From contig JAKQNZ010000168.1 of the NCBI GenBank assembly GCA_029565535.1, forward strand, positions 4,635 to 68,634: 64,000 bases of DNA. The letters run 5' to 3'. Shown here in pieces: positions 7,600-64,000 of this stretch. Origin of the DNA: Candidatus Cloacimonadota bacterium. Lineage in GTDB: Bacteria; Cloacimonadota; Cloacimonadia; Cloacimonadales; Cloacimonadaceae. A program made the translations under genes and the position numbers. Each line of letters starts with the position of its first letter. Positions within the stretch are counted from its first letter, which is position 1. Under the pieces are notes generated by a model. The model had not been told where the DNA came from. It ran no database searches and saw only the letters and a program-made list of their open reading frames with translations.

Positions 7600-7696
7600 G
7601 AGATCCTCCCCACTTCCACCCTTGTCCCATTGCCGAGGAATTCGGGTGGAATTCGGGTGGGATTCGGGTGAAACTGCAGGGGCAAGCAAGGAAGGC
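7600..7696. repeat. Dispersed repeat family, copy A. Contains 3 direct 'ATTCGGGTG' motifs and ends in 'GCAAGCAAGGAAGG'.
   Basis: Read directly. Three direct 'attcgggtg' copies at 7639-7670. The 3' end matches the copies at 38.9 kb and 61.2 kb. Lies between the convergent folA and cobB genes. Confidence 0.5.
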
Positions 7697-13856: not shown

Positions 13857-14471
13857 TCAGGAAACGAGCGCTACCCCGGCATGAAGAATCTGGCGAATTC
13901 GCTGGCCGATCGTATCGATATCCATCTCATTCTCCCCGGCCAGCCAGTTCCACAGAACAATGTCCATGCTGCCAACCAATAAAAGCGCAAGGGCTTCAGC
14001 GTCAATCGTTTTGATCTGATTTTCCTGAATTGCGGAAGTAGTAACCTCCTTTACAAAATCCAAATATTTTAGCAAGGGATTATAGCCAGGATTGCGACGG
14101 ATGAAATTCTCGTTTTGCCTTGCTTCCACAGCGATGAAACGGGCTATGTAGGGCTTCTCCTTTACCAAGGCCACATGATGCATAAAAAACTCATACAGCC
14201 GATCCATGTGATTGGATACCTCGGCAGTTCTATTGATAATCCCATTTATCTCTGTTTCTATTATCTCTTTCATGCAGTGCTGTAAAAGATCGTCTTTGCT
14301 GTCGAAGTAAACGTACACGGTTCCCAAGGCTACTCTGGCTTTTTTTGCCACATCGGCGATCGTAGCCTGATTTGAGCCTTTTCTGGCAAACACTTCTATG
14401 GCAGCATTCAGCAGCAATTCCCGTTTGTTTTGACGACCTGCTTTTCTCAAAGGTACATTATTTCTGGGCAT
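13857..14471 (-). CDS. TetR/AcrR-family transcriptional regulator
   Basis: N-terminal HTH 'ATIADVAKKARVALGTVYVYFDSKDDLL'. Size about 200 aa. Confidence 0.85.
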   Translation of the reverse strand: MPRNNVPLRKAGRQNKRELLLNAAIEVFARKGSNQATIADVAKKARVALGTVYVYFDSKDDLLQHCMKEIIETEINGIINRTAEVSNHMDRLYEFFMHHVALVKEKPYIARFIAVEARQNENFIRRNPGYNPLLKYLDFVKEVTTSAIQENQIKTIDAEALALLLVGSMDIVLWNWLAGENEMDIDTIGQRIRQILHAGVALVS

Positions 14472-14756
14472 GGCTCCTCCACTAAGCCTTGTTTATCTGT
14501 GATCACTCTTTTCTGTCCCTGGAAAATCTGTCAATCGCTATCCCGATTATTTTCCTGGTCTTTACTGCATCAAGCCAGTACCGGCAGTTGTTTCATATCA
14601 TCCTTGGTTATGCCAGCAACCCACATATTATCATAGGTTTACAACATTCCTCAAAAACAGGAAGTCCACTCTTTTCCGCGTGGAAAATATTCCACACCTG
14701 CATAATATTGGCATTAATATGTTATTTTGTCCAAAGGAACACTGCTTCTCAGAAAA

Positions 14757-15235
14757 CGCTGGAATTCCGATGTCCCCACCGGAATGGCTTACCCGGTGTC
14801 TTACCGGGTTATCAAACTGCCAGCGAGGACGCTGGAGCTCCATACGAAGGAATGTCGGTGTCCCCACCGGAATGGCTTACCCGGTATCTTACCGGGTTAT
14901 CAAACTGCCAGCGAGGACGCTAGCAGACCACTCCAGCGAGGACGCTGGAGCTCCATACGAAGGAGTTTCGGTGTCCCCACCGGAATGGCTTACCCGGTGT
15001 CTCACAGGGTTATCAAACTGCCAGCGAGGACGCTAGCAGACCACTCCAGCGAGGACGCTGGAGTTCCATACGAAGGAATTCCGGTGTCCCCACCGGAATG
15101 GTTTACCCGGTGTCTCACCGGGTTATCAAACTGCCAGCGAGGACGCTGGAGCTCCATACGAAGGAGTTTCGGTGTCTCTACCGGAATGGTTTACCCGGTG
15201 TCTCACAGGGTTATCAAACTGCCAGCGAGAACGCT
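14757..15235. repeat. Tandem array of 5 copies of an ~88-bp unit. Copy 1 carries a 15-bp deletion. Two junctions carry a 25-bp sub-repeat insert.
   Basis: Units at 14757-14829, 14830-14917, 14943-15030, 15056-15143 and 15144-15230. Inserts at 14918-14942 and 15031-15055. Each unit holds 2-3 short hairpins. Confidence 0.9.
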
Positions 15236-15253: not shown

Positions 15254-15287
15254 AAACAAAAACCCGGAACTGCAAGGCAATTCCGGG
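15254..15287 (-). terminator. Rho-independent terminator of gdhA
   Basis: Minus strand reads 'CCCGGAA-TTGCCTTGCAG-TTCCGGG' followed by 'TTTTTGTTTG', about 27 nt after the gdhA stop. Confidence 0.7.
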
Positions 15288-15313: not shown

Positions 15314-16651
15314 TTACACCAGACCTTGATCGCACATGGCATTGGCGACCTTCAGGAAACCAGCGATATTAGCGCCTTTCACATAGTTCACATAACCGTC
15401 TGCTTCCTTGCCGTTGTTGCGGCAGGCAGCGTGGATGTTTTTCATGATCTCATGCAAACGGGCGTCGACTTCGGTTCTGTTCCAGCCCAGGCGCATGGAG
15501 TTCTGGGTCATTTCCAGACCGCTAGTAGCTACGCCGCCTGCATTGGCAGCTTTTCCTGGAGCAAAGAGCATCCTGGCTTTCTGGAAGATTTCCACTGCTT
15601 CGGGAGTGCAGGGCATATTTGCAGCTTCAGTTACACAGATGCAGCCGTTGGCAACCAAGGCCTTGGCATCGTTGGCATCCAGTTCGTTCTGAGTAGCGCA
15701 GGGAATGGCAACATCCACCTTCACTTCCCAAGGACGTTTGCCGGCGAAGAACTTGGCATTCGGGAAAACATCGGCATAATCACACACGCGATCGTTGTTG
15801 GAAGCACGGAGCTCCAGCATGTAGTCTATCTTTTCGCCGCTGATGCCGTCTTCATCCAAAATGTAGCCGTCGGGACCGGAGAGAGTGATAACCTTTCCGC
15901 CCAGTTCGTTAATCTTTTGGGCAGCTCCCCAGGCAACGTTTCCAAAGCCGGAGAGAGCTACTTTCATTCCTTCGAAGCTCTTGCCCTGAGTTTTCAGCAT
16001 TTCTTCGGCAAAGTAAACCACACCAAAGCCTGTAGCTTCAGGACGGATGAGGCTTCCGCCCCAGTTTATGCCTTTACCGGTGAGTACGCCGGTAAATTCG
16101 TTTTTAAGCTTTTTATACATTCCGAACATGTAGCCGATTTCGCGTCCGCCCACGCCGATATCACCTGCGGGAACATCGGTGTCGGGACCGATATGACGAT
16201 AAAGCTCGGATATGAAAGACTGGCAGAAACGCATTATTTCAGCGTCGCTCTTGCCTTTGGCGTCAAAATCGCTACCACCTTTTCCTCCGCCCATAGGCAG
16301 GGTTGTAAGGCTGTTTTTGAAAATCTGCTCAAAGCCAAGGAACTTTAATATGGAGAGATTTACACTGGGGTGAAAACGCAGACCGCCCTTGTAAGGCCCG
16401 ATAGCGCTGTTAAACTGAACACGATAGCCGCGCTGTACGTGCACTTCACCTTTGTCGTCCATCCAGGGAACGCGGAAAATTATCACTCTTTCAGGTTCCA
16501 CAATGCGTTCAAGGATGTTTGCTTTCACGAAGCGGGGATTGCTCACATAAGCATCCCAAATGGTTTCGACAACTTCTTTAACTGCTTGCAAGAACTCGGG
16601 TTCGCCAGGGTTCTTGGCTGCGACTTTGGCCATGAAATCATGGATAGTCAT
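15314..16651 (-). CDS. gdhA: NADP-specific glutamate dehydrogenase
   Basis: 'GPYKGGLRFHPSVN', 'PMGGGKGGSDFDAKGKSD', 'SGFGNVAWGAA'. 445 aa. Confidence 0.95.
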   Translation of the reverse strand: MTIHDFMAKVAAKNPGEPEFLQAVKEVVETIWDAYVSNPRFVKANILERIVEPERVIIFRVPWMDDKGEVHVQRGYRVQFNSAIGPYKGGLRFHPSVNLSILKFLGFEQIFKNSLTTLPMGGGKGGSDFDAKGKSDAEIMRFCQSFISELYRHIGPDTDVPAGDIGVGGREIGYMFGMYKKLKNEFTGVLTGKGINWGGSLIRPEATGFGVVYFAEEMLKTQGKSFEGMKVALSGFGNVAWGAAQKINELGGKVITLSGPDGYILDEDGISGEKIDYMLELRASNNDRVCDYADVFPNAKFFAGKRPWEVKVDVAIPCATQNELDANDAKALVANGCICVTEAANMPCTPEAVEIFQKARMLFAPGKAANAGGVATSGLEMTQNSMRLGWNRTEVDARLHEIMKNIHAACRNNGKEADGYVNYVKGANIAGFLKVANAMCDQGLV

Positions 16652-48531: not shown

Positions 48532-48981
48532 ATGAACCAAAAACTCCGCAGTGATGGCTCAATAAAAGCCATTTATTCCGCCTCAGAAGGGAAGAAGCTC
48601 TACCGGCCTTTGATGGCATCAAAGATAAATGCCGGCTTCCCCTCTCCAGCTCAGGATTACATCGAAGGCAAGCTTGACCTTAATGAGCATCTCATAGTTC
48701 ATGAAGCCTCCACCTTTTTCGTGCGTGTGGAAGGATACTCCATGCAGGGCGCAGGAATCCTGCCAGACGACATTCTGATCGTGGACAGAGCCCTCGAAGC
48801 CACACACAACCGAATCGTGATCGCCATCCTGGATGGAGAACTAACCGTCAAACGCCTGCACATCGAGGATTCGCAGTATTATCTGGTGCCCGAAAATGAA
48901 GACTACAGCCCCATTCTTATCGACGAGGACATGGATTTTATGATCTGGGGTGTGGTTACTTACGTTATTCACAAAGTATAG
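48532..48981 (+). CDS. umuD: UmuD-like S24 peptidase (LexA-family autoproteolytic protein)
   Basis: 'AGFPSPAQDY' (UmuD cleavage-site region), 'VEGYSMQGAGI' (Ser nucleophile context), 'LTVKRL' (Lys). No HTH domain is present. Confidence 0.75.
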   Translation: MNQKLRSDGSIKAIYSASEGKKLYRPLMASKINAGFPSPAQDYIEGKLDLNEHLIVHEASTFFVRVEGYSMQGAGILPDDILIVDRALEATHNRIVIAILDGELTVKRLHIEDSQYYLVPENEDYSPILIDEDMDFMIWGVVTYVIHKV

Positions 48982-51900
48982 TGCCTTGCTTTGTTCAAAG
49001 CGTTTACTATCCTCGCTTCTTATCCTGCTGTTTGCAGTAACCCTGCCTTCACAATCTCTTTTCACCCGCAAATCTCTTATACTAAGTCCCTCTGAAACCA
49101 GCTACAAAATCGCGGAAAGTCCCTTGATTCATCACAGTGAAAGCATTAAGGCCGACAGCCTCAAGCTGATCCACGGACTGGATTACCTGCTGGACTATGA
49201 AAATGGGCTTCTTAGGCTAATCCGCATGCCAGAAACAGAGCAACTCCAGATCGAGTATATTTTGGTGCCAACAAACCTGCATAAGCCAGTGCAACTATAC
49301 GAAATCCAACCTGCCTCAGACAGCCTGTTCGCTCGTATAGTTAGAAAGCCCAAAGTCCTGTTCAATCCAGATGGCAAGCTGGAGATAAAAGGATCAAAGA
49401 CCTTTGCCATAGCCTTTTCGGACGATGAGTCCTTCGACCTGAAGCAATCTCTCTTTGTTAATCTTACTGGCGAACTTTCTCAAGGAGTTAATCTGGAAGC
49501 CCAGCTATCAGACAGCCAGTCCAAGCTTTCCCCGGAAGGCGATTCCAAGGAGTTGAGCTCTTTGGACAAGGTATTTGTAAAGCTGTATGGTAAAAATTAT
49601 GAATTGGCGATGGGCGATCTGAATCTGGAATTCCGCAACAGCCGCTATCTGGAATACCAAAGCAGTTTCGAGGGTCTATCCGCCAGTTATAAAAACCATT
49701 CCGAACTGCAGGCTGCCTTTGCGGCCGGAAGCGGTAAAAGTAGTACGGTAATCCTGCCTATCGTAGATGGAAAGCAAGGGCCCTATTATCTCCGACCGAA
49801 CGACTATCAGCCAGGTTATCTGGTTGTAGCAGGCTCAGAAGAGGTTTTCGTGGATGGTAGCCGTTGGGAACGGGGCTTGGACTATAGCATAGACTATTCT
49901 GAGGGCAGCCTTATGTTCAAGAGGCTTGTTTATTCCGCAAATAATGTTTTGGTACGCTTCCAGTATTCTGATGAGTTTTATCCAGTTTCAAGCTATTTTA
50001 GCTCTTCCTATCTTCCTCTGGGGTATAATCTTAGTTTTCGGCACCATTTTATCTGGCAACAGGATGACAAACGGCACCCCCTGGCTACCTCATTTTCAGA
50101 AGCAGACCTCGATTCTCTAAGACAAGCTGGCGATAACGTGATCTGGGGCAATGGTGTAAACCAGGTGGCCGAGGGAACAGGAAGCTACAAGCTAGCAATA
50201 AGTCAAACGGGGACTGAGTATTATGAATATGCCCCTGGAGACAGCCTGGCAGTTTATGATCTGATATTCAGTTATGTGGGTTTTGGAATGGGTGATTACC
50301 AGGAGTTTTCCAGCGGAAAGTTCCGCTTTGCAGGGATCGGCCAGGGTTCCTGGCAACCGCAGAAAAGGCTTATTCCACCAGCCAAAACTGGTAATCTGGA
50401 ATTGATTTTTGCTTATCAGGGCTCTGCTTTTACAGCAGGAGTGGAAACCCTTGGCTCGCTTGCCGACAAGAACACACTTTCTGAGAAGGATGACGGGGAC
50501 AATCTGGGGGGGCTGATTTTTACTTATGCTGAGCTTCCCTGGGCAAGCAACAAAGTCAGGCTGGAGCACGAAGAGCGAACCGCTAGCACGAAGCTCTTTG
50601 GCAAATACCGAAATACAGAAACCGAATACGATTTTAACGCTCTGGCAAAGGCGGATTCTCTGGCTCAACGCAATAGCGACCTTCTACTATCCCATCTCGG
50701 TGAAAAGTGGAAACTTAGTCTGCTGCTGCGATATAGGGACATAGCCGATTTGAACTACTTGAAAGCCTTGCGTATTAGCTCTTCATCCAGCGGCAAAGGT
50801 CTGTTGCCTGCCATAAACCTGCTAAGTACTCTCGCTGAGCAACAGAATAAAACTGCCGCCAAAGATAAAAGCCAGTTGCAATACCTGCAGGGAGACCTAG
50901 CCTGGATCTACAAATCTCTGCGCCTCAAGCTTGCTGCCCTGCAAAACTCACTGCTTCAGAGCTCTCTGGGCACCGACTACCAAAAGCTGAATCCGCAGCT
51001 TAGCTGGGGCAATAACGCAAAGCTATTTTCACAGATCAGCTTCAGCGCAGATCAAAGTAAAGTAAAAAACCAATCAGTTTGGACTACCCAAAACCGCTCT
51101 GAAACCTATGCTTACAAGCAGGTTCTGAATCTGGGCCAACAGCGGCTTGATCTGGAGTTTACGCATCGCCAGCTACGTCAACCCAGCTCAGAAAACCCGG
51201 TTTCAAGCTATGATCTGGTGAACCTGCGTTCCAACCTAAGCGCTCTGAAACAGATGCTAAGCCTCTACACGAATTACCAGCTCAATCAGACTGAATTTTT
51301 CCCAAAAATAAGAGAACTGCAATACGTTGGCAATGGCCTGGGTTTGTATGACAGCACAGGGGTCAGCATTACAGATGGGGACTATGATTATGTGTTTATA
51401 ACCAGTTCCCAGGGCACTCTGGCCAGTGATATTAACGCACTCTGGACTCTGTATTTAAAACCTGGCAACTATCTGCAGGGAGACGGGTGGAAACGCTGGC
51501 AAATCGACAGTACTTTGCAACTAAGCGAGCAAAGCAGCAACCGAGACGATTGGAAGCGCTATCTCTTTTGGCCGGGCACTGTTTACAACGAAACCAATAC
51601 CATCTTTGGCCGCCAAAACCTGCAACAAACCTTGTGGGTGGAATTGATTCAAAACCATATGAACGCAAGTCTCCAGCAAAATCTGGAGCGCAGCCTGGAC
51701 AAGCGATACCAAAGCCCGGAACGTAGCTATAGCTTACAACACTTTGTACAGATGGACATCAAAGGCTATTCTAGCTACAGCACACGCTTGTTGTTCAGCC
51801 GGGAATTAGCACAGGACTCACGCTATCTCTCCAGCCTGAAAAGCCTTGGTGTCAGTACTCTGGTTCAGAGAAATCTGGCTGTGCAAAGCAACCTTCAGGC

Positions 51901-52234
51901 TGAGCTGAGCTATACCCGCGAAGATGGAGGCAAACAAGATGGCAGCGAGACGTATCGCTTGCATAGCTACTATTTTTCACCCAGCATTCGTAGTGTCTGG
52001 CTACAGAAGTACCGTTTTTCAGGGAGCTTTTCGCTTACCTACAACATCCTTTCGGGAAGCGGATATTTTGGCTTTTTGCCCAATAAACGCGCAGGCTGGA
52101 TACCTGGGCTAAGCCTAAGTGGAATTTATCGGCTGAATAACTTCAGCAGTCTGAGCCTGGAATACCGTTTCAACGATTACCCCGCGCAGAAAAGCAGTCA
52201 CGAACTAAAATTGGAGTTTAAGGCGGAATTATAA
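48950..52234 (+). CDS. Large (about 1080-1094 aa) secreted, beta-rich hypothetical protein, possibly outer-membrane. Start uncertain (GTG 48950 or TTG about 48986).
   Basis: N-terminal hydrophobic segment 'KRLLSSLLILLFAVTLPSQS'. Repeated 'GLDY.(L/I)DY..G.L' motif. S/N/Q/Y/L-rich strand-like composition. No family recognised. Confidence 0.45.
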   Translation: MWLLTLFTKYSALLCSKRLLSSLLILLFAVTLPSQSLFTRKSLILSPSETSYKIAESPLIHHSESIKADSLKLIHGLDYLLDYENGLLRLIRMPETEQLQIEYILVPTNLHKPVQLYEIQPASDSLFARIVRKPKVLFNPDGKLEIKGSKTFAIAFSDDESFDLKQSLFVNLTGELSQGVNLEAQLSDSQSKLSPEGDSKELSSLDKVFVKLYGKNYELAMGDLNLEFRNSRYLEYQSSFEGLSASYKNHSELQAAFAAGSGKSSTVILPIVDGKQGPYYLRPNDYQPGYLVVAGSEEVFVDGSRWERGLDYSIDYSEGSLMFKRLVYSANNVLVRFQYSDEFYPVSSYFSSSYLPLGYNLSFRHHFIWQQDDKRHPLATSFSEADLDSLRQAGDNVIWGNGVNQVAEGTGSYKLAISQTGTEYYEYAPGDSLAVYDLIFSYVGFGMGDYQEFSSGKFRFAGIGQGSWQPQKRLIPPAKTGNLELIFAYQGSAFTAGVETLGSLADKNTLSEKDDGDNLGGLIFTYAELPWASNKVRLEHEERTASTKLFGKYRNTETEYDFNALAKADSLAQRNSDLLLSHLGEKWKLSLLLRYRDIADLNYLKALRISSSSSGKGLLPAINLLSTLAEQQNKTAAKDKSQLQYLQGDLAWIYKSLRLKLAALQNSLLQSSLGTDYQKLNPQLSWGNNAKLFSQISFSADQSKVKNQSVWTTQNRSETYAYKQVLNLGQQRLDLEFTHRQLRQPSSENPVSSYDLVNLRSNLSALKQMLSLYTNYQLNQTEFFPKIRELQYVGNGLGLYDSTGVSITDGDYDYVFITSSQGTLASDINALWTLYLKPGNYLQGDGWKRWQIDSTLQLSEQSSNRDDWKRYLFWPGTVYNETNTIFGRQNLQQTLWVELIQNHMNASLQQNLERSLDKRYQSPERSYSLQHFVQMDIKGYSSYSTRLLFSRELAQDSRYLSSLKSLGVSTLVQRNLAVQSNLQAELSYTREDGGKQDGSETYRLHSYYFSPSIRSVWLQKYRFSGSFSLTYNILSGSGYFGFLPNKRAGWIPGLSLSGIYRLNNFSSLSLEYRFNDYPAQKSSHELKLEFKAEL

Positions 52235-54425: not shown

Positions 54426-55331
54426 ATGCAAAAAAATCAACGTAAAGCCTACCTCTTCGCCGGACTCTCGATAATAGCCTGGTCGAGCATCAGCACGGCC
54501 TTCAAGCTCAGCTTGCAGGGACTTACTCCGCTTGGCTTGCTCTTGGTTTCATCCTTTACAGCCTCGCTATTTTTAGGTTTGAGCGGGCTGTTATCCCAGG
54601 CAGGATTGCTAAAGAACCCAGGAAAGGACCTTTTGGCTTCTCTGCTGCCAGCTTTACTGAATCCCTTCATCTATTACCTGATACTCTTTGAAGCCTATTC
54701 GCGATTGCGAGCGCAGGAAGCGCAGGCCTTGAACTATACTTGGGCAATCGTGCTGGCAATGTTTAGCATCTGGCTTTTGCACGAACGATTTAGAGTTATC
54801 GACCTCGTCTCGCTGCTGATAAGCTTCCTGGGTGTATGGTTGATATCGTCTAAAGGCGCTTTTGCCTCAGTGCGTTTCGATGATCCCTGGGGTTCCTTTC
54901 TGGCGGTTTTCACTTCTCTAATCTGGGCTGGATATTGGATACTGAACCTGAAAGACAAGCGGAACGCTCAAACCAAGCTGTTTTACAATTTCTTCCTGGG
55001 CTTTCTGTTTATCCTGATTTTTACACTGCTGAGCAAAGCTAGGCTGGTGGGCAATTCCAGGTATTTAACCCAAGGCTTGCTGGCAGGAATCTACGTAGGA
55101 GTGTTTGAAATGGGACTTACTTTCCTTCTGTGGTTCAAAGCTCTGGAATACACCAGGAGCACAGCGGCAGTTTCCAACCTGATCTTCCTTACCCCTTTCA
55201 TTTCGCTGCTCTTCATCCGCCTGATTTTATCAGAAAGCATCCATCCTGCCACCTTTGCCGGCTTGGTGCTTATTGTAATCAGCAATCTGGCTCAAAAAGG
55301 GATTGGCAGAAAACTACAGCGGAATGCTTAA
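54426..55331 (+). CDS. EamA/DMT-family transporter
   Basis: 10-TM pattern with two EamA-like halves. The 3' end overlaps the convergent dinB by 18 nt. Confidence 0.75.
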   Translation: MQKNQRKAYLFAGLSIIAWSSISTAFKLSLQGLTPLGLLLVSSFTASLFLGLSGLLSQAGLLKNPGKDLLASLLPALLNPFIYYLILFEAYSRLRAQEAQALNYTWAIVLAMFSIWLLHERFRVIDLVSLLISFLGVWLISSKGAFASVRFDDPWGSFLAVFTSLIWAGYWILNLKDKRNAQTKLFYNFFLGFLFILIFTLLSKARLVGNSRYLTQGLLAGIYVGVFEMGLTFLLWFKALEYTRSTAAVSNLIFLTPFISLLFIRLILSESIHPATFAGLVLIVISNLAQKGIGRKLQRNA

Positions 55332-56375
55332 CTGCTCGCAGTTATCCTGATTGTCCAATTTGCCCACTCCCAATCCCAGAAGCCTTACCTTGCGGGTGCT
55401 CTGCCAGTTTGCCACAAGTAGCTGTTCTCCATATTTATACAGCACAGCCGGATCATTACAGGAACCCCGCATGGCACAGCTGCGGGTGATGTATTCGAAA
55501 TTGTCGTACTTCAGCTTCAAGACAATATTCTGACCGCTGATACCCTTGGTCGCCATTCTTGATGCCAATCTTTCCGAAAGCTTGCGCAAAACAGCAAACA
55601 GCTCATTCATATCGTCTGTATCGGTGTCGAAGGTCGTTTCGCAGCTAATGGACTTTGGCTCAAATTCGGTGATCACTTCCCGGGTATCAATTCCGCGCAC
55701 CACATTATAATAGAACAGCCCTGCCTTGCCAAAAACCCGCAGCATATCTTTCAATTCCCAGCGGTAAAGGTCTTCCCCATTCTTTATACCCAGCTTTTGC
55801 ATGCGAGCGGCAGTGACCTTGCCAATTCCGTGAAATTTGCCGATTGGCAGAGCGAAAAGTATCTCCTGGGCGTTTTCGGGGGTGATAATTGTAAGGCCGT
55901 CAGGCTTATTTAAATCGCTGCCAATTTTGGCAAGAAACTTATTGTACGACACTCCCGCTGAGCAGGTTAACTGCGTCGTTTTCATTATCTCGGTTTTAAT
56001 CGCCTTGGCTATCTCCACAGCCGAGGTTTCGGAATGCTTGTTCTGGCTTACATCCAGATAGGCTTCATCCATGGACATTGGCTCCACAAGGTCAGTCCAG
56101 CTATAGAATATCTCCCTTATCTGATTTGATACTTCCTTGTAAAGCCGGAAATGTGAGTGCACGAAAACCGCCTGGGGACAAAGGTTCCAGGCCTGATAGC
56201 TGCTCATTCCGCTGTGAACGCCAAATTTGCGCGCTTCATAACTACAGGTGGAAACCACACCGCGACTATTGGGGGGGCCGCCTACGATTACGCATTTGCC
56301 CTTTAGAGACGGGTCTTCCCTTATCTCGATTGCAGCGAAATACATGTCCATGTCTATATGGATTATCTTTTTCAT
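55314..56375 (-). CDS. dinB: DNA polymerase IV (Y-family)
   Basis: 'IIHIDMDMYFAAIE', 'SMDEAYLDV', 'CSAGVSYNKFLAKIGSDLNKPDG'. Confidence 0.9.
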   Translation of the reverse strand: MKKIIHIDMDMYFAAIEIREDPSLKGKCVIVGGPPNSRGVVSTCSYEARKFGVHSGMSSYQAWNLCPQAVFVHSHFRLYKEVSNQIREIFYSWTDLVEPMSMDEAYLDVSQNKHSETSAVEIAKAIKTEIMKTTQLTCSAGVSYNKFLAKIGSDLNKPDGLTIITPENAQEILFALPIGKFHGIGKVTAARMQKLGIKNGEDLYRWELKDMLRVFGKAGLFYYNVVRGIDTREVITEFEPKSISCETTFDTDTDDMNELFAVLRKLSERLASRMATKGISGQNIVLKLKYDNFEYITRSCAMRGSCNDPAVLYKYGEQLLVANWQSTRKVRLLGLGVGKLDNQDNCEQLSIPL

Positions 56376-61141: not shown

Positions 61142-61256
61142 CATCCTTGCTTCCTACCCGAATCACACTCAGTATCCACCCGAATGCCTCCCTAACCGCA
61201 TCCGGGTGGCATTCGGGAGGCACTCGGGTGGCAGGGGGGTGGGCAGGAAGCAAGGC
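61142..61256. repeat. Dispersed repeat family, copy C (~115 bp)
   Basis: Same block order as copy B. Internal 10-bp hairpin 'CCCGAATGCC...GGCATTCGGG'. Ends 'CATCCTTGCT' / 'AGCAAGG'. Confidence 0.55.
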
Positions 61257-61267
61257 AAAAGTTTTTC

Positions 61268-61320
61268 TTGCCAAAAAGCCCGGCCTCGCTTAGTATGGAT
61301 ATATGAACATGCATTCATAT
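61268..61320 (+). promoter_or_regulatory. Candidate promoter (TTGCCA-N17-TAGTAT) with a downstream 7-6-7 inverted repeat, a likely ArsR/SmtB operator
   Basis: -35 at 61268-61273 and -10 at 61291-61296. Operator 'ATATGAA-CATGCA-TTCATAT' at 61301-61320. Confidence 0.45.
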
Positions 61321-63789: not shown

Positions 63790-64000
63790 AGCCCGAAGGG
63801 CGAAAGATCATAGCGATGGGCTCGGAGCTTTAGCGGAGACCCTCGATAATGTTAATTCCCAGATAGTTAGCCCCTTGTGGGCGACATATCATAACGATGG
63901 GTTCGGAGCTTTAGCGGAGACCCTCGATAATGCAGCGATACAGATATTTAGCCCCTTGTGGGCGACATATCATAGCGAAGGGTTCGGAGCTTTAGCGGAG
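63790..64000. repeat. Tandem repeat, 81-bp period, at least 2.6 copies, truncated by the window edge
   Basis: Copies start at 63790, 63869 and 63950. About 64 bp is conserved ('AGCCCCTTGTGGGCGACATATCATA.CGA.GGGTTCGGAGCTTTAGCGGAGACCCTCGATAATG') and about 17 bp is diverged. Confidence 0.85.

Follow-up and report, generated by a model that had tools for sequence, protein, structure and literature searches.

What kind of element lies between gdhA and a TetR-family regulator gene in an uncultured Cloacimonadaceae species from anaerobic digesters, and does it act on its neighbors? The window analysed here, a stretch of 64,000 nucleotides from contig JAKQNZ010000168.1 of a Candidatus Cloacimonadota bacterium, contains at positions 14757-15235 a hairpin-dense tandem array, and the minus-strand order at this locus is gdhA, an intrinsic terminator, the array, 285 nt and TetR. 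Source names of proteins at least 90% identical to those of the window point to a Candidatus Cloacimonadaceae bacterium. The array is a non-coding variable number tandem repeat (VNTR) of small palindromes, whose 88-nt and 25-nt modules expand, contract and reshuffle between strains. We consider it probably an orphan, low-copy, neutral or selfish minisatellite, with incidental host effects at most. Because its copy number varies between strains and because it also occurs behind another gene, it looks like a genomic repeat of the repetitive extragenic palindrome/bacterial interspersed mosaic element (REP/BIME) type or the mycobacterial interspersed repetitive unit (MIRU) type, and not like a device of the TetR regulator.

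The array is composed of five head-to-tail units, one short unit of 63 nt and four of 88 nt, together with two 25-nt junction modules and a terminal fragment, as delimited by Tandem Repeats Finder (TRF), core matches and a module map. TRF reports a period of 113 nt in 2.9 copies (14820-15147, score 600), overlapped by a period of 88 nt in 2.2 copies (15046-15235, score 331). Unit 1 (14757-14819) is the short form, which lacks the 15-nt segment GCTCCATACGAAGGA and is identical to the lone unit of contig L037. Unit 2 (14820-14907) comprises the junction hairpin, hairpins C, B and A, and the tail TATCAAACTG. The two 25-nt modules occupy 14908-14932 and 15021-15045 in the TRF phase. In the phase used by an earlier note on this DNA they read CGCTAGCAGACCACTCCAGCGAGGA and lie at 14918-14942 and 15031-15055. 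Unit 3 (14933-15020) bears an uncompensated mismatch in hairpin A (ACAGGGT) in the unit alignment, unit 4 (15046-15133) has all its hairpins fully paired according to both the fold and the alignment, and the gdhA-proximal unit 5 (15134-15221) carries the variant loop GTCTCT and ACAGGGT, holding the same position in other strains. The terminal fragment CCAGCGAGAACGCT, read off the sequence, closes the array at 15222-15235. The earlier note had described five head-to-tail copies of about 88 bp, the first lacking 15 bp, with an extra 25-bp module at two junctions, and TRF and the module map bear out each part of this description. The 21-nt core CACCGGAATGGYTTACCCGGT occurs five times, always inside the array (0 expected from 100 shuffles), and the rest of the 64-kb window holds no further unit copy by core match, nhmmer profile or covariance model. 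A near-repeat GA(A/G)AACGCT bounds the array at 14749-14760 and 15227-15235.

Four hairpins make up the unit. The junction hairpin is CCAGCG-AGGA-CGCTGG, hairpin C is (A)GCTCC-ATACGAA-GGAG(TT), hairpin B is (A/T)TTCCGGT-GTCCCC-ACCGGAA and hairpin A is ACCCGGT-GTCTC-ACCGGGT. The three hairpins named earlier are all found, and hairpin C is added to them. Hairpins A and B have the core CCGGTGTCYCACCGG in common, in the same orientation, and the 25-nt module duplicates the junction hairpin by adding a second one (CTGCCAGCG-AGGA-CGCTAGCAG), so that the unit combines palindromes of two types in a mosaic. Each unit contains two CCGGTGTCYCACCGG-type hairpins and one or two CCAGCG-AGGA-CGCTGG hairpins, and the long form adds a 15-nt hairpin insert. 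Palindromes of 16-22 bp constitute most of each unit. In addition, the loop of hairpin C is the centre of a competing 14-bp helix, GACGCUGGAGCUCC/GGAGUUUCGGUGUC. In the predicted fold, unit 1 and the next CCAGCG form a closing stem CGCTGG/CCAGCG that encloses hairpins B and A, and in multi-unit arrays these hexamers pair locally across the unit junction. Predicted folding is much more stable than that of shuffles on both strands (z = -7.2 for the plus strand and -11.4 for the minus strand). The plus strand of the array has 2 stop codons, 20 GGA and 10 AGGA in 479 nt, with AGGA tetraloops on six junction hairpins and one decayed copy; the minus strand has 23 stop codons, zero AGGA and 6 CGTC. 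This strong asymmetry between the strands resides in linkers and loops.

The array differs between strains. A total of 21 metagenome contigs encode the identical GdhA protein, and among the ones examined most terminate inside the array. The flanks of the allele contigs are 98-99% identical where compared, those of L003 lying outside the comparison. Read from TetR to gdhA, with M for the 25-nt module, the window allele is short, 88, M, 88, M, 88, 88 (5 units, 2 modules, gap 843 nt), the L003 allele is short, 88, M, 88, M, 88 (4 units, gap 755 nt), and the L036 allele is short, M, 88, M, 88, 88, M, 88 (5 units and 3 modules, placed differently). L001 has at least six units, and L037 (GCA_054685835.1) has a lone short unit. 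Across strains the terminal units keep their own variants and the interior differs, which is the usual behavior of minisatellites.

A scan of JGI metagenome contigs with an 18-base core, followed by exact-protein look-ups that place unmatched flanks, reveals a second array. It is likewise intergenic and lies behind a glyceraldehyde-3-phosphate dehydrogenase (GAPDH)-like gene, which itself follows a pyruvate phosphate dikinase (PPDK)-like gene. At this locus L051 and L052 each carry 2 units, and L056 carries at least 4. The array begins 12 nt past the stop codon, with no canonical terminator between, its orientation relative to the upstream gene is the opposite of that of the gdhA array, and no TetR gene is located within 7 kb. 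The two arrays also end in different repeat phases, the GAPDH-like array in hairpin C and the gdhA array in the junction hairpin. Neither array shows the fixed ends, terminal inverted repeats or target-site duplication of a miniature inverted-repeat transposable element, and the short direct repeats at the array ends are merely partial units; the differing end phase rejects such an element. A CRISPR array is rejected as well, as whole units are 92-100% identical, stand head to tail and have no unique spacers between them.

Beyond the two arrays, the covariance-model search yields one weak hit, a degenerate unit copy behind ftsZ (27.5 bits). Over all recovered metagenome contigs, the loci found are gdhA, the GAPDH-like gene, one unplaced flank and the degenerate ftsZ copy, a tally that is a lower bound. 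The unplaced flank is the unique left flank of L033 (1-126), which represents either a third locus or a chimera. Three contigs (L010, L039 and L033) join unrelated flanks through the unit or an intron, linking gdhA with GAPDH or ftsZ with TetR. In L010 (1600-1871) the gdhA flank is joined to the GAPDH flank via a single unit, most simply an assembly artefact of the repeat. L010, L039 and perhaps L033 are probably chimeric assemblies, and these joins may alternatively reflect real recombination between arrays.

The unit is restricted to a narrow range. Six sister-lineage loci (L045-L050), with phosphofructokinase (PFK) at least 90% identical, possess gdhA and have no TetR gene, unit or tandem repeat. 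In these sister Cloacimonadaceae, PFK-gdhA is followed by a secreted protein of the type IX secretion system (T9SS) type instead of the TetR operon. Given these six loci, the array sits at a synteny breakpoint and is recent. Among 185,579 species-representative genomes there are only 7 single core matches, two of which, read directly, are unrelated sequence; by a rough estimate, chance alone gives about 17 matches of 18 fixed bases in 596 Gb. Viral contigs, plasmids and phages give zero unit matches, which rejects an origin from a plasmid, phage or virus. The repeat family is previously undescribed and is seen in one Cloacimonadaceae species only; its phylum, the Cloacimonadota, comprises uncultured bacteria of digesters.

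The array has itself received a mobile element in some strains. In L005 (3440-3585), the gdhA-adjacent unit is interrupted at ...GGGGACACCGACATTC^GTGCG. L039 (3637-5509) contains a group II intron of about 1.87 kb; its 3' end matches domains V-VI of RF00029 (59.6 bits), and beyond it come the remainder of the unit and TetR. The intron product of 431 aa has reverse transcriptase and maturase domains, and no endonuclease domain is called. The insertion point in the array is 6 nt after hairpin B, and the intron is oriented with the upstream gene. On its 5' side L039 shows another site, behind ftsZ, where a junction-like hairpin (GCCAGCGAGACGCTGGCATTC^) precedes the intron by 6 nt and the orientation again follows the upstream gene; this contig is likely to be chimeric across the intron. 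Introns of class IIC are inserted behind inverted repeats that resemble terminators, along the direction of the upstream gene (PMC1702495). The sites observed here agree with such homing sites in that the intron follows an inverted repeat by a few bases and is directed as the upstream gene, but differ in that no T-run follows the array hairpins and gdhA has its functional terminator upstream of them. The array hairpins resemble terminator motifs enough to be intron targets, and nothing more is shown by these insertions.

The same contig carries a second system of repeats. At 63798-64000, running off the end of the window, an unrelated 81-bp tandem array directly follows a heavy-metal P-type ATPase gene. 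In L057 (1-1270) and five other contigs, this 81-bp array abuts a 142-aa Y1 transposase named RayT by JGI, and the other flank of RayT consists of inverted 103-bp units, a core of about 50 nt being shared. A contig of 69,522 bp is on record with the identical RayT protein, and the contig of the window has this length (69.5 kb). The flanking arrays vary between contigs, with 2.0-5.1 copies of the 81-bp unit and 3.0-4.2 copies of the 103-bp unit, and L058-L060 have no RayT and keep one remnant unit. The region of RayT and its arrays is also seen in L065 (4672-6269). RAYT genes are known to be flanked by REP/BIME structures (Nunvar et al., PMC2817692), and RayT with its 81/103-bp arrays is a REP/BIME-RAYT arrangement, which shows that elements of this sort occur in this host as composite units of 80-110 bp arrayed head to tail. 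The 81/103-bp units have no sequence similarity to the 88-nt unit, and no 88-type unit is located within about 6 kb of RayT. A sequence link between the 88-nt array and this RayT is thus rejected, and because no sequence is shared the connection is by analogy only.

The array does not encode a protein. A 190-aa pseudo-ORF has a sole homologue among 5.8 billion proteins, which is the array called as an open reading frame (ORF) in another metagenome, and one peptide is repeated in all three plus-strand frames, as had been pointed out earlier. The long plus-strand ORFs arise because that strand has only 2 stops in 479 nt, against 23 on the other. These features together reject a coding sequence, in agreement with the earlier judgement.

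Searches for a structured RNA are likewise negative. Rfam 15 gives no match in the window at the gathering score, and relaxed thresholds give chance-level miRNA models (E >= 0.07); no tRNA or tmRNA is found in the window. A known RNA family, a tRNA-like element and a riboswitch are therefore rejected. Covariation was examined over 14 distinct units and 24 proposed pairs, the units being too alike for a powerful test. The result is not above shuffles: double changes occur at 2 of the 24 pairs, a number equalled by 59 of 500 shuffles, and the covariation score is 0.044 vs 0.035 for shuffles. This test had been proposed in the earlier note, which also held that absence of the array from close relatives, with no compensatory changes in the stems, would argue against function; with six negative sister loci and null covariation, that is essentially what is seen. 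Hairpin A carries uncompensated mismatches in 5 of the 14 units, and hairpin B also carries some. The frequent C-to-T change in hairpin B keeps pairing on the plus strand only, through G-U, as had been noted from its arm variants, but the G-to-A change of the junction hairpin (CACTGG) keeps pairing on the minus strand only. Since hairpin B favors the plus strand and the junction hairpin the minus strand, no consistent selection on strand or structure is visible. The suggestion of a structured RNA array thus finds no Rfam match, no covariation, uncompensated mismatches and opposite orientations at the two loci.

Two genes border the array, both on the minus strand. Upstream in transcription lies gdhA (15314-16651, minus strand), which codes for an ELFV dehydrogenase, and its intrinsic terminator (15263-15287, minus strand) has an 11-bp stem and TTTTTGTTTG. 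The terminator is located 27 nt from the array, where about 20 nt had been stated, and the earlier figure of about 285 nt between the array and TetR is exact for the TetR ATG. The array sits beyond the gdhA terminator and so is not simply a 3' untranslated region (UTR), as the earlier note had recognized. On its other side, the called TetR-family gene (13857-14471, minus strand) is the first gene of an operon that continues with a 335-aa protein, a polysaccharide deacetylase and a C25 peptidase. The TetR promoter region contains an inverted repeat, CCTGGAAAAT-21-ATTTTCCTGG (14518-14558), which overlaps a promoter-like site of the TetR strand. It is a candidate TetR operator and bears no relation to the palindromes of the array. 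A weak promoter-like site facing the array is found at 14430-14459. No transposase, integrase or RayT gene is detected within the window in a Pfam survey that covered most ORFs directly and most others via precomputed hits of homologous genes on related contigs.

How close, then, does the array come to known repeats? REPs are imperfect extragenic palindromes of 20-40 bp that usually exceed 100 copies per genome, in BIMEs the regularly spaced REPs alternate in orientation, and a cognate RAYT is flanked by inverted REPs (PMC2817692); the REP palindrome has an unpaired GTAG or CGTC tag at one end (PMC3733652). The array is like the REP/BIME elements of Enterobacteria and Pseudomonas in that it is extragenic and consists of short palindromes rich in G+C, joined with linker modules that come in alternative lengths. 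It is also found 3' of genes in either orientation, is species-specific and strain-variable, and shares its contig with a RayT that has tandem arrays. It differs in its 2-3 loci, itself a lower bound, against more than 100 copies, in its long unit of 88/113 nt and in its strictly head-to-tail order, the units and both CCGGTGTCYCACCGG hairpins being direct and the loops GTCYC/GTCCCC all on one strand. Moreover, the RayT of this contig is flanked by the different 81-bp and 103-bp units, and the array ends are not fixed between loci. GTAG occurs 0 times on the plus strand and once on the minus strand, and the 6 minus-strand CGTC lie across stem and loop in the junction hairpin, not at its end. 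Of the options raised in the earlier note, the BIME/REP-like cluster comes closest, the repeat being extragenic, palindrome-dense and copy-variable, at more than one locus and in both orientations, but in the strict sense it breaks down over the number of copies, the alternation of orientation and the flanks of RayT.

The MIRU-VNTR loci of Mycobacterium tuberculosis are reportedly tandem intergenic units of 40-100 bp at several loci, strain-variable in number, and are said to go back to descriptions by Supply et al. in 1997 and 2000. MIRUs are not palindrome-dense, are oriented with the operon, and contain short ORFs overlapping with stop and start codons of the genes on either side. The 88/113-nt units of the two arrays have the same tandem organization, several intergenic loci and strain-dependent copy number, and would serve equally as a strain marker. 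Unlike MIRUs, they are palindrome-dense, their length is not a multiple of 3, they stand after a terminator, and they occur in both orientations, with 23 stops on the strand of the flanking genes. The BOX elements of Streptococcus pneumoniae have boxA and boxC as their fixed ends and number more than 100 in a genome. The array resembles them as a modular intergenic element with a variably repeated internal module and stable predicted stem-loops, but the fixed ends and the high copy number are BOX features, and BOX has no sequence similarity to the 88-nt unit. Strict membership of the array in either the REP/BIME or the MIRU family fails.

Several explanations that give the array a function or a cognate transposase have to be weighed against a neutral minisatellite. 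That a selected stack of hairpins acts in cis, as a back-up terminator, as an insulator that separates gdhA from the TetR operon or as a 3'-end protector of read-through transcripts, is unlikely. Both arrays lie directly 3' of central-metabolism genes, the GAPDH-like gene has no canonical terminator before its array, the predicted folds are very stable, and a preprint reports E. coli REPs as context-dependent 3'UTR elements (bioRxiv 10.64898/2026.03.23.713779). Nevertheless, at gdhA the array already sits behind a strong intrinsic terminator, its hairpins have no U-tracts, the orientation is opposite at the two loci, strains differ in unit number, from 1 up to at least 6, and the sister species have no array. 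We regard it as distinctly unlikely that the array belongs to a true REP/BIME family, in which the palindromes would be substrates of a RayT encoded elsewhere in the genome and the arrays would be mobilised as non-autonomous BIMEs. The extragenic two-palindrome mosaic found 3' of genes in both orientations, the same-contig RayT with tandem arrays on either side and the 6 CGTC on the minus strand of the array are what such a family would show. On the other hand, that RayT is flanked by unrelated 81/103-bp units with no 88-type unit in its vicinity, only 2-3 loci are known, the array-end phase differs between them, the repeats are direct and not alternating, and the palindrome ends apparently have neither a GTAG nor a CGTC tag.

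An RNA acting in trans is quite improbable. It would be a putative plus-strand transcript, divergent from TetR here and, at the second locus, serving as the 3' end of the mRNA from the GAPDH-like gene, whose 7 AGGA tetraloop hairpins would titrate a CsrA-like RNA-binding protein or ribosomes. Protein-sponge RNAs of the CsrB/RsmZ type are transcribed, expose many GGA motifs in the loops of hairpins and occur together with CsrA/RsmA. In line with it are the 20 GGA and 10 AGGA on the plus strand against zero AGGA on the minus strand, an AGGA junction loop constant in 13 of the 14 distinct units, the hairpin B changes, most of which pair on the plus strand only via G-U, and the promoter-like site at 14430-14459 that points towards the array. 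The junction variant CACTGG, which pairs on the minus strand only, covariation no higher than in shuffles, the single-unit allele and the sister species with no such element all speak against it. AGGA richness and stop scarcity on the plus strand are the sole hint towards a plus-strand RNA. A more specific form, a sponge RNA of variable copy number in which an expressed plus strand would titrate a regulator or ribosomes through its AGGA hairpins at a dose tuned by unit number, is highly doubtful. Equally hard to credit is a DNA-binding array, whose palindromes would be operators or decoys for the adjacent TetR or another dimeric DNA-binding protein. Palindromes of 19-22 bp fit the size of a dimer site, and the array lies 285 bp upstream of TetR, but near the second array there is neither TetR nor another regulator, the TetR promoter comes with a separate, unrelated inverted repeat over the promoter-like site, copy number is unconstrained, and the palindromes contain uncompensated mismatches. 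The protein-binding array for the adjacent regulator proposed in the earlier note is not supported, given the TetR-free second array, the one-unit allele and the separate repeat at 14518-14558, and, as far as sequence comparison goes, an array of TetR operators is rejected by the same three observations, the allele of L037 leaving a single unit beside TetR.

A neutral or selfish minisatellite also has evidence to answer. The family is low-copy, with 2-3 loci vs the more than 100 copies of classical REPs, its units are head-to-tail and not alternating, and no RayT flanked by the 88-nt unit was found. The one-unit allele of L037 is provisional, as it could be an assembly collapse, and the true number of loci is uncertain because L010, L039 and perhaps L033 are likely chimeric. 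Furthermore, one stem change is compensated (CCTGCG/CGCAGG), and this change together with the near-invariant AGGA loop may indicate weak selection on the hairpins. All these points weigh against the reading that we prefer.

For such a minisatellite, we propose that expansion and contraction would proceed through unequal recombination or replication slippage between units, and that the family would belong with REP/BIME or MIRU repeats as neutral or selfish DNA. Its distribution and variability suggest that it would have no dedicated function. Any influence on the host would be a by-product of the hairpins, which might, for instance, block gdhA transcripts from reading through into the TetR operon or draw in the intron. 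The second locus might have been reached with the help of a RayT-type transposase acting in trans, or by recombinational copying of an array fragment.

Other features of the window stand apart from the array. Short repeats GGAATTCGGGT (three copies) are located between convergent genes at 7637-7670, and related CACCCGAAT/ATTCGGGTG copies, some of them inverted, are located at 61160-61247, just upstream of an ArsR-family gene at 61303. The GGAATTCGGGT, CACCCGAAT and ATTCGGGTG repeats may be another small dispersed motif or an operator. A 1094-aa ORF at 48950-52234 has no Pfam match at E <= 1e-5 (region 48532-52234) and overlaps the end of a gene for an S24 peptidase (LexA/UmuD-like). A DinB-type polymerase gene is found at 55314-56375, and other genes occupy the DinB position in strain L059.

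For the species that carries it, the array is usable as a VNTR marker that separates strains in metagenomes. It is at the same time an assembly hazard when genomes are binned, as most contigs with the host gdhA stop inside the array and several join unrelated flanks. A new mechanism would be opened only if the RNA reading were true. Our analysis highlights how three kinds of selfish or semi-selfish DNA are linked in one small genome: minisatellites of hairpins, a RayT that has arrays of its own, and a group II intron that targets hairpins.

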